DNA of 39,895 bases, taken from IMG/VR virus record IMGVR_UViG_2519899564_000019. The stretch is one strand, 5' to 3'. Shown one piece after another: positions 10,253 to 39,895 of the stretch; position 1 is the stretch's first letter, and every line of letters begins with the position of its first letter. The stretch comes from a virus. Taxonomy: Duplodnaviria; Heunggongvirae; Uroviricota; Caudoviricetes. The position numbers and the translations under genes were made by a program. The notes under the pieces were generated by a model that saw nothing but the letters and a program-made list of their open reading frames with translations, searched no databases and had not been told where the DNA came from.

Positions 10253-10678
10253 ATGGCAGAAACTCAGATGAGCATGTTTGGTGGTGACAGTGAGCAACTG
10301 CACGCCCTTATCGACCGCCTTGATGACATCCCTGATGATGTTCTCAAAAAGAACTGGCCGCGGACCCTGTCAGAACTGGTTGAAGTCACCGGCGCAGAAC
10401 TTCAGCGTCAGGGGATTGAGCCGGTACTGGCCGGTAAACTGGCACGCAAGGTGGCTGCGGCTCAGGCAGCCTATATGGGCGGACGGGGTTATTACCTGCC
10501 GGTCGGGGAATCTCTCTTTGCCGAGCTGCGAAACAATGAGATATTTTCGCGCTGGGACCGGGGCGAGAAAATTGAATCCCTTCGCCGCCATTACCGGATG
10601 TCAGAAACCCAGATTTATAACGTCATACGCGAACAGCGCCGTCTGCATCTGGCAAGAACGCAACCGCCACTTTTCTGA
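10253..10678 (+). CDS. Mor/C-family transcriptional activator (middle/late gene activator)
   Basis: 141 aa; C-terminal HTH-like region (RRHYRMSETQIYNVIREQRR) typical of the Mor/C family; only one such homologue in the window, so Mor versus C cannot be decided. Confidence 0.7.
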   Translation: MAETQMSMFGGDSEQLHALIDRLDDIPDDVLKKNWPRTLSELVEVTGAELQRQGIEPVLAGKLARKVAAAQAAYMGGRGYYLPVGESLFAELRNNEIFSRWDRGEKIESLRRHYRMSETQIYNVIREQRRLHLARTQPPLF

Positions 10679-10749
10679 TATTCCGCAAAGCCTGCCGCCT
10701 CTCCTTCACCGTTACGCTGACTCAGAGAACATCATGAGACAGCGTAACA

Positions 10750-18474: not shown

Positions 18475-18650
18475 TTGTTTAAGGTATGCAAATGCATTAC
18501 CTTACCCCCTTCAGGCGCGTGTCGTGATTTTCTAACCTGTATTTAACGGGCTTTAAAATCTGCGTGAAGCGCCTTTGTATTTTTCCCCTGGAAGCACTTC
18601 CTGAAATCCCGCAAAACCCGCCCTGAAAATTCCCGGCCTATGCTGCCGGA
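18475..18650. promoter_or_regulatory. G-I intergenic region: probable late promoter for the head operon; candidate centre-of-genome gyrase site
   Basis: 176-bp non-coding gap at about the midpoint of the prophage; near-palindrome GGTATGCAAATGCATTACC at its 5' side. Function inferred from Mu, where PI and the strong gyrase site lie between G and I. Confidence 0.4.
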
Positions 18651-33627: not shown

Positions 33628-33994
33628 TTAAATACTTGCAGCGGATACCCAATGCCCATTAATACAATATTGTATCTGTCTGTAATAAACACGGTCATCA
33701 CCACCACGCATTTCCCAGTCTCCGTCAGTCTTAAAACCGGTAATCACATTTCCTGATGACAGGGAGTAATTATATTCCAGTCCGCCGCTTAATGCCTGCG
33801 CTCCCAGTCTTACCCCTGTAACATAACGCTGATTGGCCGTTGATTCCGGCATTCCTGACGTAATGTTTATATCCTGCGTGCCGTCAAAGGCGACACCATT
33901 GATTCTGCGGGCATTTGCCAGCCTGCTTGCTGCAACAGCCGTACCGTTTGATGGCAGGGCATTCGCGGCCCTGTTTACCGTATCCCGTAAACCG
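33628..33994 (-). other. S'v: promoterless alternative tail fibre C-terminal cassette (expressed only after inversion)
   Basis: Minus-strand frame is open from gixR (33994) to stop at 33628 and translates to GLRDTVNRAANALPSNGTAVAASRLANARRINGVAFDGTQDINITSGMPESTANQRY..., paralogous to the Sv portion of S. Confidence 0.7.
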
Positions 33995-34007
33995 AGGTTT
34001 CAGGGAT
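33982..34007. repeat. gixR: 26-bp Gin/Hin-type recombination site upstream of gin
   Basis: ATCCCGTAAACC-GA-GGTTTCAGGGAT, an imperfect palindrome resembling the gix/hix family as recalled. Confidence 0.7.
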
Positions 34008-34061
34008 GCCGTATATCTGCTTTAAAAGGCTTTTCCACCTCTTTTTAAGGAAGGTAAATAC

Positions 34062-34622
34062 ATGCTGATTGGCTATATACGCGTATCAACAAATGACCAG
34101 AACACCGGTTTACAAAGAAATGCGCTGGAATGTGCAGGATGTGAGCAGATTTTTGAAGACAAAATGAGTGGTAAAACGACACAGCGGCCGGGACTGAAGC
34201 GGGCACTGAAGAAACTAAAACCCGGTGACACGCTGATGGTCTGGAAACTGGACAGGCTGGGGCGCAGTATGCGCCACCTTGTTGCGCTGACAGATGAATT
34301 ACAGCAACAGGGGATAAATTTTCGTAGTCTTACTGACAACATTGATACGTCAACCCCCATGGGGCGCTTCTTTTTTCACATAATGGGTGCGCTGGCAGAA
34401 ATGGAGCGTGAATTAATTGTCGAACGGACACGGGCTGGTCTTGCAGCAGCCCGTGAAAGGGGACGAACCGGCGGCAGACCCCGCCGTCTCACGCAGGAAC
34501 AATACGAGCAGGTCGGGCGTTTACTGGCCGGGGGTGTCAGTCGAAGACAGGTGGCACTTATTTTTGATATCGGTCTTTCAACCCTTTATCGTTATTATCC
34601 TGCGAGCGTTTCGGAAAAATAA
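34062..34622 (+). CDS. gin: Gin/Hin/Pin-family serine DNA invertase
   Basis: 186 aa; N-terminal catalytic motif GYIRVSTNDQ, resolvase-like core and C-terminal HTH; adjacent to the invertible segment. Confidence 0.9.
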   Translation: MLIGYIRVSTNDQNTGLQRNALECAGCEQIFEDKMSGKTTQRPGLKRALKKLKPGDTLMVWKLDRLGRSMRHLVALTDELQQQGINFRSLTDNIDTSTPMGRFFFHIMGALAEMERELIVERTRAGLAAARERGRTGGRPRRLTQEQYEQVGRLLAGGVSRRQVALIFDIGLSTLYRYYPASVSEK

Positions 34623-34721
34623 GACGCTCTCTTTGTTGGGCCTTTACTGAATTAACGCAAAATGGCGTTTATCGGTCTGTGGATATGATAATTCAGTTTA
34701 TTCAGGAACAGGCTGATTATT

Positions 34722-36770
34722 ATGACGTCCAAATGGGTTCAACTATCATCAATGCCCGGAAACTTTACTGTTAAAGTTTCCGGTGGTACAGCGGCATTTC
34801 TTGAGGCTCCCTTTCCTCCGGCCGAAACAAAAGGAGGAATGACATTTGCTGACTGTCTCATCAGTTTTAATACACAGGATTGCCTGTGGGTAAGGCCAGT
34901 ATCCGGTGATCCGAACGTGGAAATTACCGGAGCGGGTATTGGTGCTGTCATTCCGTTAAGTGCTGATGTTGCCGGTACTACTGAACCGTCAGACTGGGAT
35001 AATGCAGAAACACATACCCGTCCGGCAGGAAATGAAACGGCTTCCAGCTCCCCTTCCTGGTATTACGTGATTGTTATAGCCGGCCAGTCCAATGCTTCAT
35101 CTTATGGTGAAGGGTTGCCCCTTCCGGATTCTTATGATCGTCCTGATCCACGTATTATGCAGCTGGCACGCAGGAATACACAAACCCCCGGAGGTATTCC
35201 CTGCAAATACAATGAAATCATTCCAGCAGATCACTGCCTTCATGATGTTCAGAATATGAGTCTGCTGAACCATCCAAAAGCAGACCTGAAAAAAGGGCAG
35301 TATGGTTGTGTGGGGCAGGGACTTCATATTGCGAAAAAAGTATTACCGGTGATTCCTGCTGATGCCGGGATTTTACTGGTTCCCTGTGCCCGTGGCGGCT
35401 CTGCTTTTACAACCGGCGCAGTTGGCTCATTCGATCCGGCAAGTGGTGCAGCCGAGGCGTCACTACGCTGGGGAGTGGATACCCCACTGTATCAGGATCT
35501 TGTCAGTCGAACTAAAGCGGCACTTGAGGCGAATCCAAAGAATGTGCTGTTATCTGTCGTATGGATTCAGGGGGAAGGAGACCTTAAAGCGACCCCGGCC
35601 CAGCATGGTGCCCAGTTTACTGCGATGGTGAAAAAATTCCGTGCGGATCTTGGTGCTTTCTCCGGTCAGTGTATTGGTGGTTCATCAGACAGTGTGCCGT
35701 GGTTATGTGGTGACACAACCTATGACTGGAAAGAGAAGAACCCGGCGGCATATGAAACCATTTATAGCGGATATAAAAACCGGGCTTCCGAGAACATTCA
35801 CTTTGTTCCACTGATGCACGATGAGTTCGGTAATAAAACCGCGACCAACCTGCCGGAGCACGACCCGGATATCGCTTCTGCCGGGTATTATGGTGCGGAA
35901 TCACGGGGAGATGGCAACTGGACAACAGCATCCAGGGCAACCCATTTTAGCTCCTGGGCGCGCCGTTTTCTGGTCTCAGATCGTTTTGCATCAGCAATTC
36001 TTAAATATGCAGGTCTGACCTCTGCATTTATTGCCGGTGTGGCCCCTGATGGTGAAGCCCTGCCTCAGCCCGCGCCGGGTGGGAAACCGGAAGCGCCGAC
36101 AGGTAGTCAGCCAGGAGGCAGTGAGTCCCCCCATCCGACATCCCCGTCACTCCGTACGCTGCTTTCACTTAAAGCATCAGCAGGAGAAGCCCCGGCTCAG
36201 GGCTGGAAAATTACAGATGGTACAATCCAGCTGACGGACGAAGGTAAAGCGTTGACCGTATCCAAACAAAGCGGAAAAACCTGGACGCTTACCCATGGAA
36301 CTGATGCAGCCGGTGAACTTCTGAAGCATGGTGGTCAGTTGACCTGTAAATTCCGTCTGTCAGGTGAAGTAAAAGAAGGCCAGTTTGCTCTGGGTATTTA
36401 CCTCCACACCGATACGGTCCCGGAAGGTGTAACCATGAGTGGTACAGGCACACCGTTCCTGATGGCGTATTATCTCCAGACAACAGGCGGCCAGTTAAAT
36501 CTGATGCACCATAAAACAGGGGGGAATACGAAACTGGGATCATTTGGAGCCTACAATAACCAGTGGCATACACTTGTCCTGAAGTTTACGGCGGGAAGTG
36601 CCCAGGTAACGCCTGTGCTGGATGGCACTCCGGGCCAGGCATTCCAGATGGTGAAAGATGCACTTTCCCCTGCCAAAGATACGCTGACACTGACAGATGT
36701 CACCAAAGGGGCAACTTATGGCGTGTCTTTTGAGAGCGTTGTCCTTGAGGTTAATACCCCTGCGGCATAA
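34722..36770 (+). CDS. cargo protein (682 aa) with a GQSN-type esterase motif; possible carbohydrate O-acetylesterase of the kind carried by prophages
   Basis: Motif IVIAGQSNASSYGEG resembles the catalytic block of SGNH/sialate-O-acetylesterase-like hydrolases; Gly/Thr-rich beta-looking C-terminal part; no signal peptide; inserted between gin and com where Mu has none. Family assignment from motif only. Confidence 0.5.
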   Translation: MTSKWVQLSSMPGNFTVKVSGGTAAFLEAPFPPAETKGGMTFADCLISFNTQDCLWVRPVSGDPNVEITGAGIGAVIPLSADVAGTTEPSDWDNAETHTRPAGNETASSSPSWYYVIVIAGQSNASSYGEGLPLPDSYDRPDPRIMQLARRNTQTPGGIPCKYNEIIPADHCLHDVQNMSLLNHPKADLKKGQYGCVGQGLHIAKKVLPVIPADAGILLVPCARGGSAFTTGAVGSFDPASGAAEASLRWGVDTPLYQDLVSRTKAALEANPKNVLLSVVWIQGEGDLKATPAQHGAQFTAMVKKFRADLGAFSGQCIGGSSDSVPWLCGDTTYDWKEKNPAAYETIYSGYKNRASENIHFVPLMHDEFGNKTATNLPEHDPDIASAGYYGAESRGDGNWTTASRATHFSSWARRFLVSDRFASAILKYAGLTSAFIAGVAPDGEALPQPAPGGKPEAPTGSQPGGSESPHPTSPSLRTLLSLKASAGEAPAQGWKITDGTIQLTDEGKALTVSKQSGKTWTLTHGTDAAGELLKHGGQLTCKFRLSGEVKEGQFALGIYLHTDTVPEGVTMSGTGTPFLMAYYLQTTGGQLNLMHHKTGGNTKLGSFGAYNNQWHTLVLKFTAGSAQVTPVLDGTPGQAFQMVKDALSPAKDTLTLTDVTKGATYGVSFESVVLEVNTPAA

Positions 36771-36827
36771 TCGTGACGGCCGGGAATTTATCCGGCTGTA
36801 ACATCAGTTAATAAGAGTGAGGCTTAT

Positions 36828-37007
36828 ATGACATATATAAACGTCTGCCTGCTGTATTTCTGCACGGTGGTTTGTTGTCTGTTGCTTGTCAGCGGTGGTT
36901 ATAAAATTATTCGCAATTATTTTCGAAATAAAATTGATGCAGCTGCCGAGGAAAAGATAAAAAGCGGTGCTGTAATGCCGCAGCCGAAAGACTCCGGTCA
37001 GATTTAA
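36828..37007 (+). CDS. possible small membrane protein (59 aa), not in the ORF track
   Basis: ATG 36828 preceded by TAAGAGTGAGG; N-terminal hydrophobic Cys-rich segment VCLLYFCTVVCCLLLV, then a charged tail. Confidence 0.3.
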   Translation: MTYINVCLLYFCTVVCCLLLVSGGYKIIRNYFRNKIDAAAEEKIKSGAVMPQPKDSGQI

Positions 37008-37042
37008 TTTTTTGTGAACCAGAAAAGGAAAGGAGAATATTC

Positions 37043-37288
37043 ATGCCAGAGATTAAAGGCACGGTTACTGAAGAGCTTGTCAAACAGGCACTTTATTCTG
37101 AAGAAGTGAACCGCGTGCTGAAGGCGCAGGTTCGCAAGGATTTTGAGGCACAAATCGACGCATATGTTGATGAAGTGCTGGCCCGAATGGTTGGTCGTTC
37201 TCCGGCTGAAAACAGCACGGAAAATGAGCCTCAACCCGTAGAGCAACCAGAGCCGGTTCAACCCGGAACTGACGGTACTATGATGTAA
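37043..37288 (+). CDS. hypothetical small protein (81 aa) with acidic Pro/Glu-rich C-terminus
   Basis: ATG after AAAGGAAAGGAG; followed by an 8-bp-stem hairpin at 37298-37317. Confidence 0.4.
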   Translation: MPEIKGTVTEELVKQALYSEEVNRVLKAQVRKDFEAQIDAYVDEVLARMVGRSPAENSTENEPQPVEQPEPVQPGTDGTMM

Positions 37289-37297
37289 CAATACCGA

Positions 37298-37317
37298 CCG
37301 GCAGGTTTCCCTGCCGG
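37298..37317. terminator. Hairpin after the 81-aa gene (possible terminator)
   Basis: CCGGCAGG-TTTC-CCTGCCGG perfect 8-bp stem; the downstream tract is only partly T-rich. Confidence 0.4.
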
Positions 37318-37639
37318 GTGAATTTGTTAATGCACGTTTTGTGTATTTTCCCTCCGGGGAGAACAGGCAGGACATATCAGCATCCTGAAACAGGAAGCAT
37401 TTTTTGGTTTGTATGTCTTGCCATTTTGAGATCGAGAACGGCGATAGATGAGCTGTAAGGGAGTCTTACAGGCAGGGCAAACAGGCTCTTTATCCATGAT
37501 AAAGATCTCCTTTTTATGCATCTCTGCTTTACAGGAGACCGGGGAATATCATAGGATACGCCACGAGCTCGAAGTAAAGCATTGATGCAAAATTGTCTAA
37601 ATCGGCCCAGAATAGTTCGCGCTATCTGGGTCGCCCTTT

Positions 37640-37906
37640 ATGTATGTAGTATCCCATTGATTTGAAACATACTACATATACGCGCGATCCTACCGACACT
37701 GTATAAAAAGTCAATAAAATGATCATTTTATGATCGTTTTCACACGCTAACTCTTCGTTTTTCTTGAGTAAATAATCACCTCCCTGAATCATTGTTGATG
37801 ACTTTTCAATCTATTTGTTGTATCAATTAAACAAATCGAATCGATCGTTTTTGTCGATCGATTGCATGAGAAAGGCATCAACAACAAAGCAGGAGGTTAT
37901 GCGGCC
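37640..37906. promoter_or_regulatory. AT-rich com-mom upstream regulatory region with clustered GATC sites
   Basis: GATC at 37686, 37721, 37732, 37843 and 37856 (two closely spaced pairs, the last two inside CGATCG palindromes); perfect 10-bp inverted repeat TATGTAGTAT / ATACTACATA at 37642-37678; AGGAGG at 37891-37896 before com. Confidence 0.5.
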
Positions 37907-38107
37907 ATGTATCGAAACATACGGTGCCGACACTGCAATAAGCTACTGGCACGGGCCAGTTTCAGTTATCTGGAAGTAAAATGTCCGCGCTGTAAAACCC
38001 TCAATCAAATCACATCTCCGAGCGCCACAGAGCACCCCACATACACAAGGAAATCCTGTCGTGGGGAACAGAAAGCAAGTCACATCCCGTATCATCAGCA
38101 CGCCTGA
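37907..38107 (+). CDS. com: Com-like zinc-finger translational activator of mom
   Basis: ATG 37907 after [16 protein letters not shown]...CPRCK zinc-finger pattern parallel to Mu Com; 3' end overlaps the mom start. Confidence 0.75.
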
Positions 38108-38798
38108 ACTTATTCGCTATAACGACAATATCGTTGGTTATGGCTCCCGTGAGTTGCGGGTTGAGACAATAAGTTGCTGGCTGGCCAGACTGGTCATCGT
38201 CAATAAACATTACAGCCACCGTTTCGTAAATAACTCCTACCTTCATCTGGGTATATTTTCAGAACGGGAACTTGTTGGCGTAATGCAATGGGGTTACGCC
38301 CTTAACCCAAACAGTGGTGCACGCGTCGTAACGGGTACGCAGAACCGAGAATATATGGAGCTTAACCGGCTATGGATGCATGACTGTATGCCGAGAAACT
38401 CCGAATCAAGGGCAATCAGTTACGCGCTCAAGCTAATCAGGCAGCTTTATCCGCAGGTACAGTGGGTTCAGTCGTTTGCAGATGAGCGTTGTGGCTGTCT
38501 TGGTGTCGTGTATCAGGCAAGCAATTTTGATTATGTAGGCAGCCATGAATCAACATTCTATGAACTTGATGGCGAGTGGTATCACGAGATTTGCAGGAGT
38601 GCCATTAAACGAGGCGGACAACGAGGTGAACATCTGAGGGCTAATATCGACAGAGCCAGTGTGCATAAGTTCCGACAGTTTCGTTACATCCGGTTTCTGA
38701 ACAAGAGGGCCAGAAAACGCCTCAACACAAAGCTATTCAAAGTCCAGCCTTACCCAAAACCACAAACAGTTAAAACTGGTTTGAAAGAGAGTGAATGA
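38061..38798 (+). CDS. mom: Mom DNA-modification protein (adenine modification, anti-restriction)
   Basis: 245 aa; close match to Mu Mom as recalled ([71 protein letters not shown]); overlaps com. Confidence 0.9.
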
Positions 38799-38834
38799 GC
38801 GCTTAAAAACTCATTCTAAAACTCAAAAGAAAAG

Positions 38835-38907
38835 CGCCGATTTAGTATCAAATAAGTTGCGTATCGGCGTTTTTCAGCGGTATCAAATGAAATGCAAATC
38901 GGTATCA
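38835..38907. repeat. Prophage right end: three direct GTATCAAA-containing repeats (candidate transposase binding sites) and terminal CA
   Basis: GTATCAAA at 38845-38852, 38880-38887 and 38902-38909 (exact end uncertain to about 20 bp); hairpin CGCCGAT...ATCGGCG followed by TTTTT at 38835-38875. Confidence 0.55.
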
Positions 38908-39895
38908 AAAAAATCGCCGCGCTATAATAGAGATCACTAATTTCAAAAGCACCAGGCGATACATAAGTTTGGTAAATGGTGTAACCATTTTGCTTAATCG
39001 TTATCTGGGCATTGCTTTTGGCGATACCACGCACCACAGGCGCAAACCCTTTCAGGCTGTCTGGCAGCATGTTGTCATCTGACGCCAGCTGCACACCACG
39101 AAAGCTGACACTATCGAAAAAATCGCCTGCAGTATAATCATCACCTACGGTCAGTTCGCCTTTTAGTGGAATAACCGCCCGCTGCAAATAGCTGCTGAGA
39201 TTCTTCCATTCTGCGGTTTGGCCACTACTGCGACTCCATGTTGAATTGTTGCGCAATCTCCATGGGCCTAAATTAACGCCACTGTTTAAATTCAGAAAAT
39301 AGCTGTCGCCAGAATCACTGTCTGCGCTGCTATGAATACTGTTAGCCCCGCTAAACGAATATCCCAGTAATAGCGCGTTGATCCCTTCATCCCAACGTTC
39401 AGGGGGGACATAACCACGGGCATTACTTTTGATGGCGATTTGCGGTACTGAAATTTCCAGACGGAGTTTATTCACATTAAACGTTACGCTGGCATCCGGA
39501 ATAATCTCCGCCAATGGCACACACGCTTGTTTGTCCAGTTGTTTAAAAGCCGGAAACGCATCAGTATTAACACCCATTGCATCCAGGCTTTCAGTCGTCA
39601 AACAGGCGGCAATCCCCTTCTCTGGCGTTATCTCAACAAAATTGACGTTGCGCGTATCTACAATTGTCTGATTCAGAACAATATCGACACGATAAACCCC
39701 TGGCGTTATTTTTTGTCCTTTTTCGAAACGAGACAAATCGGCCACCATTGAGGGATCATCTTTGAAAAAAGCAGGATCGAACCAGGTTTCAGCTTGTGCA
39801 TTGAACGCTGCCGACACAAACACCACCAGCCCACCAATAAACGATGGCACTCCACCAGAGCTTAACAGGCTGTGTTGTCGATGAGTTCTATACAT
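38908..39895 (-). pseudogene. Fimbrial usher (FimD/PapC family) N-terminal fragment, truncated by the prophage insertion
   Basis: Minus-strand ORF begins at the window edge with a signal peptide and an usher N-terminus (ARGYVPPERWDEGINA, FRGVQLASDDNMLPDS, ITIKQNGYTIYQTYVSPGAFEISDLY); after ...YSAA the frame runs about 32 codons into prophage sequence to a stop at 38816; ushers are normally about 800-900 aa. Confidence 0.75.

Follow-up and report, generated by a model that had tools for sequence, protein, structure and literature searches.

In phage Mu, the invertase gene gin lies almost directly before com and mom, with 94 bp between the end of gin and com. For the DNA studied here, the original prediction described about 3.2 kb of cargo at this junction, namely a 682-aa ORF resembling sialate O-acetylesterases, two small ORFs and an AT-rich stretch. 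The questions are therefore what this module encodes, whether it is a later acquisition and where its enzyme would act. The window, i.e., the whole stretch of 39,895 nucleotides that was analysed, holds a prophage with genes for MuA, MuB, the Mu portal, gpT and gp45-48 around the esterase gene, and all the described parts of the module were confirmed. In the alignment to Mu, gin (74.5% DNA identity) and mom matched and nothing else did; the DNA extra to Mu spans about 34625-37825, roughly 3.2 kb. The features are listed below, with the starts of com and mom taken from the RefSeq gene starts of L002.

34062..34622, + strand: gin-type DNA invertase, left module boundary (Resolvase, E 1.4e-51, plus HTH_7)
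34648..34689, + strand: late-promoter-like element (box TGAATTAACGCAAAA at 34648-34662, 21-nt spacer, -10-like TATGAT at 34684-34689)
34722..36770, + strand: predicted NanS-p-type sialate O-acetylesterase, 682 aa (PHROG_143, E 2e-273; SASA and DUF6645; structures 3PT5 and 6YP6)
36828..37007, + strand: DUF1378 small protein, 59 aa, with a hydrophobic N-terminal segment (PF07125, E 9e-24; phrog_494)
37043..37288, + strand: DUF826 small acidic protein, 81 aa (PF05696, E 3e-15; phrog_311)
37327..37793, - strand: AT-rich, broken copy of an ECs_4996-like ORF, with three small indels relative to Sakai
37839..37863, no strand: GATC cluster, right module boundary, aligned with the Mu gin-com region and homologous to the Dam/OxyR control element of Mu mom
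37908-38107, + strand: com (Zn_ribbon_Com, E 3e-12)
38061-38798, + strand: mom (Mom, PF25680, E 8.5e-77)

Previous studies showed that genes for DUF1378 and DUF826 come after nanS-p in Stx phages (PMC10462455). The same order of esterase, DUF1378 and DUF826 was found in the window and in an Stx2a phage, the two small proteins being 53% and 47% identical to their respective Stx2a-phage counterparts, and the esterase would be inherited together with them as in Stx phages. The spacer that follows (37289-37861) has a GC content of 0.41 and holds the broken ORF, which in Sakai is intact (ECs_4996, 154 aa, with a C-terminal CxxC...CxxC), is annotated as frameshifted in several genomes and was found only in the Sp18-type prophage lineage. 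It had no Pfam match. PADLOC recognised none of the esterase, DUF1378, DUF826 and ECs_4996 as part of a defence system, and a reading of the module as a defence island is thus unsupported. No NCBIfam model fitted the esterase or the small ORFs, and an Rfam search of 33800-39000 returned no credible match.

Domains and predicted activity of the 682-aa protein

The predicted protein is divided as follows.

34722..34955, + strand: N-terminal domain, aa 1-78, a small all-beta cupin-like barrel without a Pfam family, in the place of DUF1737
34956..35057, + strand: linker 1, aa 79-112, disordered, containing ASSSPSW (pLDDT <50 at residues 79-108)
35058..36032, + strand: catalytic SGNH/SASA domain, aa 113-437 (alignment to NanS; Foldseek to 3PT5)
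36033..36149, + strand: linker 2, aa 438-476, Pro/Gly-rich, disordered (pLDDT <50 at residues 444-475)
36150..36767, + strand: C-terminal lectin-like beta-sandwich (DUF6645), a divergent allele (match to 6YP6)

AGG lies 9 nt before the start at 34722; with this start the protein retains W5, which is invariant in the N-domain family, and IVIAGQSNASSYGEG lies at residues 117-131. Residues 105-429 matched the E. coli NanS structure 3PT5 (E 3.7e-110), the Foldseek comparison of the catalytic domain gave a TM of 0.87 at 54% identity, and Pfam SASA (PF03629) scored 51.3 bits against a cut-off of 24.8. The conserved blocks are GQSN at 121-124 (Ser123), RGGS from 224 (Gly225), QGE at 283-285 and HFSS from 408 (His408). 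Ser123 and His408 aligned with NanS Ser19 and His301, and the catalytic residues were invariant across 26 family members. The 682-aa protein is, as had been supposed from its motif, a predicted NanS-p-family 9-O-acetyl-sialate esterase, in which Ser123 would act as nucleophile and His408 as base. By inspection, its N-terminus (MTSKWVQLSSMPGNF...) lacks a hydrophobic signal-peptide core, which agrees with the prediction on this point.

The C-terminal domain, originally described as Gly/Thr-rich and beta-looking, proved to correspond to the lectin-like jelly-roll of NanS-p. Residues 478-679 matched this domain of phi24B NanS-p (6YP6, E 9.7e-42; TM 0.89 for the AF2 model), and DUF6645 (PF20350) scored 90.9 bits against a cut-off of 27, compared with 241-248 bits for other alleles. 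Three of the four putative sugar-site aromatics are retained (F555, Y560 and Y584) and the F611 equivalent is absent. The domain of the window appears to be the most divergent among those compared, and its glycan preference may differ. As modelled, the esterase would consist of three independently folded modules joined by disordered linkers. Compared with the chromosomal NanS (YjhS, 3PT5), which is a single domain of about 326 aa homologous to the catalytic domain, the phage-encoded protein adds the N-terminal beta-domain, two long linkers and the lectin-like domain.

Every NanS-p allele tested, all of them lambdoid, showed esterase activity towards Neu5,9Ac2 and mucin and sustained growth (PMC8065619). 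By analogy with the characterised homologues, to which the window esterase is only 50-62% identical, we infer Neu5,9Ac2 as its substrate; the enzyme would remove the 9-O-acetyl group from it, in free or mucin-bound sialic acid, and the lectin-like beta-sandwich would most likely anchor the enzyme on glycans. The original prediction had instead named glycans of the host surface as a possible target, and the documented substrate of the family, 9-O-acetylated sialic acid of mammalian mucin (PMC8065619), speaks against this. In such a case, de-O-acetylation of O-antigen or capsule (sialic-acid O-antigens, O-acetylated K1) could aid adsorption or block superinfection. Such a role has been considered for NanS-p in the review literature (PMC8065619), the host-range genes (the fibre and the invertible segment) adjoin the esterase gene and this allele has a divergent lectin domain. 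However, NanS, with which the catalytic domain shares 54% identity, is known to act on Neu5,9Ac2, and the domain profile search found no tail-spike-like trimerisation or fibre domains in the esterase, so that a bacterial-surface function seems quite improbable. We also know of no evidence of surface sialic acid for O157, O111 and O103, which counts against it as well.

The window esterase shares with lambdoid Stx-phage NanS-p the SASA/SGNH Ser and His blocks, DUF6645, the DUF1378 and DUF826 genes that follow and the lack of a signal peptide. The N-terminus, however, is different. In the lambdoid proteins it is formed by DUF1737, a capsid dock; in phi24B, gp84 (NanS-p) is reported to decorate the capsid, to which this hexon-docking domain anchors it (bioRxiv 10.64898/2026.04.10.717836). 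The window esterase lacks DUF1737 and has an unrelated cupin-like beta-domain instead. The DUF1737 profile (PF08410) had no match at E <= 1 in the window esterase or in the L001 allele, the same profile matched the Stx2a-phage protein at 4e-18, and an hhalign comparison of DUF1737 with the N-domain family gave a probability of 0.1%. Fold searches with the N-domain returned generic cupin or jelly-roll likeness and uncharacterised small phage proteins, with no functional assignment, and a scan of the genome contigs with the Salmonella N-domain protein gave no match. The cupin-like N-domain is a previously undescribed small domain family.

Distribution of the module and exchange of its cassette

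The module is a fixed and stable part of the Sp18-type Mu-like lineage. It was present in 205 of the 229 E. coli genomes carrying the backbone; among 5,426 complete E. coli genomes, N-domain DNA was found in 205 and the cassette allele of the window in 43-47. About 4% of complete E. coli genomes, for the most part of STEC serotypes and including O157, O111 and O103 hosts, carry an Sp18-type Mu-like prophage with the module, and the module keeps its position even in backbones of only 77-83% identity. The proposal that it is a later acquisition (moron) stands in so far as the module is absent from Mu at the same junction, but it is not a recent one-off, being found in essentially the whole Sp18-type lineage. 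Nor does it seem to have the promoter and terminator of its own, independent of phage late control, and the distinct composition expected of a moron: the element upstream resembles the late-type promoters of the phage itself, the scan gave no terminator, and the GC content of the module (0.50) resembles that of the adjoining fibre, gin and mom genes, although it is below that of the structural core (0.57). The opposite possibility, a structural protein conserved here in all Mu-like phages, agrees with the conservation in the Sp18-type lineage but not with the absence from Mu.

Within the lineage, part of the module is exchanged.

35050..37038, + strand: exchangeable cassette, i.e., catalytic and lectin domains and DUF1378 (identity profile against L001)

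Per 100 bp, identity to L001 was >=95% up to 34999, 26-75% over 35100-37038 and 94-100% over 37039-38038. The left breakpoint is in linker 1, where identity to the L001 allele changed from 95-99% to about 70% across 35000-35100. On this profile, with its sharp breakpoints, the N-domain and DUF826 are part of the backbone, and the catalytic domain, lectin domain and DUF1378 swap as a cassette, apparently by recombination. For example, Sp18 of Sakai (O157:H7) has ECs_4993-ECs_4995 at the same position and in the same lineage, with the same DUF826, spacer and com flanks and an N-domain ~97% identical, but it carries another cassette allele, with catalytic and lectin domains ~55% identical, a canonical DUF6645 and an intact ECs_4996. 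These genes are annotated as hypothetical proteins only, and no mention of ECs4993-4995 was found in the searchable literature; a 2026 sRNA paper naming Sp18 had no bearing on the gin-com region. No lambdoid donor of the window cassette allele was found among the 5,426 complete E. coli genomes. Copies of the allele beside a 'site-specific integrase' (H105-H109) were considered as a second context, but H105, which was inspected, is a rearranged Mu-like prophage.

The decay of the neighbouring minus-strand ORF, together with one rearranged, truncated esterase copy in other genomes, could suggest that the gene is an inactive remnant carried along by the prophage. This is highly improbable, as the 682-codon reading frame is intact with its catalytic residues invariant, the gene occurs in 205 complete genomes, the representative allele P0045 is found in 1,937 blocks of the collection and the N-domain is conserved across alleles.

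Late-promoter-like elements and the site of enzyme action

The element upstream of the esterase gene, whose TATGAT lies 33 nt before the ATG, has two sisters in the window.

10676..10718, + strand: sister element upstream of the lysozyme gene (10750), following the Mor/C-family activator gene (10253-10678)
18602..18644, + strand: sister element 49 nt upstream of the head protease/scaffold gene I (18651)

The search was seeded from the sequence upstream of the esterase, and independent support comes only from the -10 hexamer at a fixed distance and from the positions of the two other sites. The composite of box, spacer and hexamer occurred at three sites in the window against 0-0.12 expected, and at none in 100 shuffles. 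The loose 15-mer motif alone was not enriched (17 matches against 15.6 expected); specificity exists only for the composite with the fixed spacing. Scanning for generic sigma-70 promoters and for terminators gave no result above the level of chance. The element is retained in all Mu-like loci, including the divergent L029 and L030, and is conserved upstream of the esterase even where the remaining spacer has diverged. Its recurrence before lysis, head and esterase genes suggests late, activator-dependent expression and gives a candidate late-promoter consensus for Sp18-type phages.

Lambdoid nanS-p, which lies between stx/Q and the holin gene and is under Q/pR' control, is expressed with the late genes and is among the most strongly induced of them (PMC8065619; PMC10462455). 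The window gene, by contrast, lies between gin and com-mom of a transposable Mu-like myovirus, with a Mor/C-type promoter-like element upstream, and its late expression is deduced from that element. What is new relative to the known lambdoid module is thus the N-terminal domain, the fixed location in a Mu-like lineage and the late-promoter-like element.

Based on these results, the module is likely to encode a NanS-p 9-O-acetylesterase of three modules on flexible linkers that is made late, released by lysis and stably kept in the Sp18-type lineage. The cytoplasmic esterase would probably be a product of the late lytic cycle, expressed from a promoter designed like those of the lysis and head operons, and would reach its substrate upon cell lysis; release at lysis is proposed because the esterase has no signal peptide. 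The enzyme would presumably benefit the lysogen population, or the phage in mucus.

Lysogenic conversion, which had also been suggested originally, would require read-through from the constitutive gin and a low, steady level of esterase in lysogens. Only 99 bp separate gin from the esterase gene, and no terminator-like hairpin with a T-run was found there; moreover, NanS-p is usually regarded as adding to the fitness of lysogens (PMC8065619). Nevertheless, without a signal peptide a cytoplasmic enzyme of an intact lysogen would not reach extracellular mucin, and the late-type element, conserved despite the diverged spacer, argues for lytic-cycle expression instead, as does the late induction of lambdoid nanS-p (PMC8065619). 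Such conversion is accordingly regarded as unlikely.

A further alternative is compatible with late synthesis and lysis release and differs only in the site of enzyme action. The cupin-like N-domain could dock the esterase on the Mu-like particle (capsid, baseplate or fibre), which would then bind and de-O-acetylate mucus sialoglycans, by analogy with the role of DUF1737 on the phi24B capsid. A virion accessory enzyme, already mentioned in the original prediction, has become more plausible with that capsid-decoration report. Another small domain stands exactly in the place of DUF1737, before a disordered linker with an SSP motif; the N-domain remains with the phage backbone at ~97% identity when the enzyme part is swapped, and the upstream element is of the late type. 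Moreover, the N-domain, whether fused or separate, comes directly after fibre, fibre-assembly or invertase genes in all the contractile-tail prophages examined, and further N-terminal variants of the esterase were found in other phages. On the other hand, the linkage of N-domain and backbone could be explained by recombination alone, because this is restricted to the homologous part of the gene. The fibre-adjacent position is also a classical moron site (P2 Z/fun), the N-domain is a separate protein in L025, so that covalent tethering is not universal, and in L022-L024 it has a different partner, an ILEI-domain protein. Display on the virion is consequently possible but doubtful. With the same reserve it could be proposed that the N-terminal domains of NanS-p are interchangeable, morphotype-specific virion adaptors, DUF1737 for the hexons of lambdoid podovirus capsids and the cupin-like domain for contractile-tail particles near the fibres; the latter, fused in Mu-like and separate in P2-like phages, may attach an esterase or ILEI-type glycan-binding cargo. 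If this were true, Sp18-type phages would be mucus-active particles, and the swap of a module of roughly 80 residues would retarget one enzyme to different virion architectures. The replacement of DUF1737 by an unrelated, backbone-linked domain also offers a handle on virion display and targeting of NanS-p enzymes in general.

NanS-p esterases allow pathogenic E. coli to use O-acetylated sialic acids of mucin, and the dosage of the prophage genes is thought to be important. The present locus extends the carriers beyond lambdoid Stx and Stx-like phages to a transposable Mu-like prophage. Sp18 is intact and packaged but not mitomycin-inducible, and this carrier type, unlike the carriers of lambdoid NanS-p, is not SOS-inducible (PMC2669165); its esterase copy may therefore be released under other conditions than the lambdoid copies.

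Relatives of the esterase or of its N-domain were also found in Salmonella, where P2-like and other myovirus prophages have them directly after the genes for fibres, fibre assembly or invertases. In the P2-like ones, the N-domain also occurs as a stand-alone protein of 78-80 aa beside esterase or ILEI genes, adjoining a SASA and DUF6645 esterase in L025 and accompanying an ILEI-domain protein plus DUF1353 in L022-L024. The esterase of L018 has 784 aa with an extra C-terminal extension, and that of L021 has a third kind of N-terminus.

The gin to com-mom junction and its carrier prophage

In phage Mu only 94 bp separate gin from com, and the DNA alignable to Mu in the present region is limited to gin (74.5%) and mom (71%). 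The extra DNA between gin and com-mom therefore amounts to about 3.2 kb, as had been noted originally. The genes at this junction are as follows:

34062-34622, + strand, gin, left neighbour of the esterase ORF
34722-36770, + strand, esterase ORF of 682 aa, containing IVIAGQSNASSYGEG
36828-37007, + strand, DUF1378 ORF of 59 aa, downstream of the esterase ORF
37043-37288, + strand, DUF826 ORF of 81 aa, downstream of the DUF1378 ORF

The DUF826 ORF is followed by an AT-rich spacer (GC 0.41) and then by com and mom; the GATC-rich mom control element of Mu aligns to 37839-37863. Outside this junction the window holds a Mu-like prophage, whose genes include MuA, MuB, GemA, one Mor/C-family activator, lysozyme, Mu portal, protease I, major head protein gpT and sheath. 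It is of the type of Sp18 of E. coli O157:H7 Sakai, a prophage reported to be intact and packaged and not mitomycin-inducible (PMC2669165).

The right prophage end (about 38926) lies inside a fimbrial usher gene (38816-39895, - strand) with a PapC-like N-terminus, and the usher is thus disrupted, as its frame continues into the phage end. Other copies are located within sorM (Sakai), within an Ig-like adhesin gene (locus L002) and beside pspG (locus L005), and such varied insertion sites are consistent with transposition. In some strains, such as L005 (NZ_CP027591.1), a break inside the esterase gene splits the Mu-like prophage into two mutually inverted halves, with an integrase fragment and IS elements at their flanks. 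Genome rearrangement therefore also takes place within the esterase gene.

A NanS-p-type esterase with a different N-terminal domain

Based on profile and structure searches, the 682-aa protein is predicted to be a sialate O-acetylesterase of the phage-borne NanS-type (NanS-p) family. The GQSN-motif esterase proposed originally was upheld by the Pfam SASA profile (51.3 bits, cut-off 24.8) and by retention of Ser123 (GQSN) and His408 (HFSS), which align with Ser19 and His301 of NanS. DUF6645 was also matched (E 8e-26), and PHROG_143 covers the protein nearly end to end (E 2e-273). In a search of solved structures, E. coli NanS/YjhS (3PT5) was matched by residues 105-429 with an E of 3.7e-110; for residues 478-679 the match was to the phi24B NanS-p C-terminal domain (6YP6, E 9.7e-42). 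In the AlphaFold model, residues 6-78, 113-437 and 477-678 fold into three modules, which are joined by disordered linkers (79-108 and 444-475). Its catalytic part superposes on 3PT5 with a TM of 0.87 and its C-terminal part on 6YP6 with 0.89, in agreement with the beta-rich C-terminal domain anticipated from the sequence; most of the remaining PDB fold matches are to lectins and to the receptor-binding domains of toxins. Ser123, His408, G225 and Q283-E285 are invariant among 26 family members. The lectin domain is the most divergent among the alleles compared (DUF6645 90.9 bits vs 241-248) and lacks a counterpart of phi24B F611. That the protein is an inactive remnant seems very improbable.

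The lambdoid NanS-p open with DUF1737 (E 4e-18 for a Stx2a-phage protein), whereas Pfam profile searches found no DUF1737 in the window esterase or in the allele of another Mu-like phage, and similarity to the lambdoid proteins begins only at residue 68-106. Residues 1-78 (the N-domain) are a separate domain in place of DUF1737. Searched exhaustively with HMMER, 1.84 billion representatives yielded only five relatives of it, and a profile search added stand-alone Salmonella proteins of 77-80 aa. W5, P33, W56 and R58 do not vary across the alignment, and a six-stranded all-beta barrel was predicted (mean pLDDT 79.8, core 85-92). When the profiles of the N-domain and DUF1737 were aligned with each other, the probability of a match was 0.1%. 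RefSeq/PGAP places the esterase start at Met11 in some genomes (4753 in L002, equal to window 34752), removing the invariant Trp5; a start at the ATG at 34722 agrees with the homologues and is served by a better ribosome-binding site.

This N-terminal difference matters in the light of a 2026 preprint, according to which phi24B NanS-p (gp84) is a capsid decoration protein whose DUF1737 forms a hexamer that docks into the hexons of the capsid, with processing of gp84 at SSP-containing linkers (bioRxiv 10.64898/2026.04.10.717836). Linker 1 of the window esterase carries ASSSPSW. In every contractile-tail prophage examined the N-domain comes directly after genes for fibres, fibre assembly or an invertase. 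The Mu-like prophages and the Salmonella locus L018 have it fused to the esterase. In the P2-like L025 a separate 78-aa N-domain gene precedes a 701-aa SASA+DUF6645 esterase, and the pair sits between fibre assembly and sheath genes; in L022-L024 a separate 79-aa N-domain gene follows a resolvase and is succeeded by an ILEI-domain protein and DUF1353. Still other esterases in the fibre-adjacent slot begin with a short N-terminus or with one of a third kind. As the leading alternative to the mode of action proposed below, and compatible with it, the N-domain may tether the esterase to the Mu-like virion, a tentative and somewhat doubtful reading.

In the Salmonella P2-like L022-L024 (8001-9179) the ILEI domain is PF15711, and DUF1353 is also found downstream of the esterase in L018 (12467-12859). 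The combination of ILEI/DUF1353 with the N-domain suggests a recurrent accessory cassette beside fibre genes. A 752-aa relative, P0139, combines DUF1737, SASA and DUF6645 with a phage tail Collar domain (PF07484), which would make it a fusion of an esterase with a domain of tail-fibre type.

A lineage module with an exchangeable core

Judged from sequence comparisons, the module formed by the esterase, DUF1378 and DUF826 genes is fixed in the lineage and its core is exchangeable. The baseplate backbone was found at 280 places in 229 complete E. coli genomes and the N-domain DNA at 246 places in 205, and two backbones at just 77-83% identity also have the module. For one allele, P0045, the collection lists 1,937 blocks, with identical synteny in the three of three places shown. 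Alleles with the common N-domain are only 47-64% identical to the window esterase; compared with Sakai (ECs_4993-ECs_4995) and the Mu-like locus L001, identity is about 97% over residues 1-119 and about 55% over the remainder. At the DNA level, identity to L001 is 95-99% up to 35000-35100, where it falls to about 70% within linker 1; at 37039, four bases ahead of the start of DUF826, it is 99-100% again. By these breakpoints the cassette spans the catalytic and lectin domains together with DUF1378. The window allele of the cassette occurs in 43-47 E. coli genomes, and the E. coli genome scan detected no copy of it in a lambdoid setting.

The module had been regarded as a later acquisition; its composition is like that of its immediate neighbours and fits an acquisition that is old and established. 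GC is 0.571 in the structural core (GC3 0.62 in head genes), about 0.50 in the fibre, gin, esterase and mom genes alike (GC3 0.37-0.49) and 0.41 in DUF1378 and the spacer. The entire right-end accessory region thus differs from the core.

Proposed late expression and action, and the downstream slots

Between gin and the esterase gene lie 99 bp, in which TGAATTAACGCAAAA is followed after 21 nt by TATGAT. The 15-mer alone was searched, the TAYGMT hexamer lying outside the search pattern; its best other match in the window is at 18602, 49 nt upstream of head gene I, and a further one is at 10676, in the 72-bp gap between the Mor/C-family and lysozyme genes. Both carry a TAYGMT hexamer 22 nt downstream:

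10676-10718, + strand, candidate late promoter upstream of the lysozyme gene
18602-18644, + strand, candidate late promoter upstream of head gene I

In Mu, P_I and P_lys, which are C-dependent promoters, lie at the corresponding positions. The window has exactly three occurrences of the composite pattern, always on the + strand (0-0.12 expected from shuffles), and scans of the window found none upstream of com and no equivalent before the tail genes. The element upstream of the esterase is kept at all Mu-like loci, including L029 and L030, where the spacer has otherwise diverged. We infer that the esterase module would belong to the phage late regulon. No terminator-like hairpin was found in the 99-bp gap; read-through from gin, with expression in lysogens, is considered unlikely. 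A candidate consensus for Mor/C-dependent late promoters of the Sp18 type is TGAWWTNNCGCAAAR, 21-22 nt and TAYGMT.

DUF1378 and DUF826 are the same genes, in the same order, as those after nanS-p in Stx phages, where a holin gene comes next (PMC10462455). The window esterase resembles NanS-p in its catalytic part, C-terminal domain and partner genes, and differs from the described family in lacking the DUF1737 N-terminus and in not being at the lambdoid stx/Q-to-lysis location. Lambdoid NanS-p alleles have esterase activity on Neu5,9Ac2 and mucin glycans, support growth and are strongly induced with the late genes (PMC8065619). The enzyme would work like NanS-p. Probably, it would be made late in the cytoplasm during lytic growth, without a signal peptide, be set free at lysis and cleave 9-O-acetyl groups from sialic acids through a Ser123/His408 SGNH mechanism, with the lectin-like domain serving glycan targeting. 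Action on bacterial surface polysaccharides instead seems improbable. Since the Sp18-type carrier is not SOS-inducible (PMC2669165), release of the esterase would follow spontaneous Mu-type induction and not the DNA-damage response by which the lambdoid copies are driven. Such proteins are annotated in RefSeq as 'sialate O-acetylesterase' or as 'DUF6645 domain-containing protein', so the gene is already known; the searchable literature yielded no account of a Mu-like prophage with nanS-p, nor of this N-domain family, the cassette structure or the promoter element.

Within 37839-37907, the com ribosome-binding site is directly preceded by the GATC cluster, a homologue of the Dam/OxyR control region of mom in Mu, and the C-binding and promoter segment found beyond it in Mu has no counterpart in the window. 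The control of com-mom must therefore be organised otherwise, and the two genes are possibly read through from the esterase operon. An ORF like Sakai ECs_4996 (37327-37793, - strand) has its frame broken by three small indels; the Sakai version is intact (154 aa, with a C-terminal CxxC...CxxC ribbon), and the ORF is annotated as frameshifted in several genomes. It was found in this prophage lineage only and had no family match. The DNA-modification slot after com varies within the lineage. Mom occupies the slot in the window (38061-38798), Sakai and L026; its place is taken by a 350-aa C5 cytosine methyltransferase in L018, where com was not identified, and likewise in L001 (7148-8200), L029/L030 (10792-11844 in L029), L031 (7905-8957) and L032.
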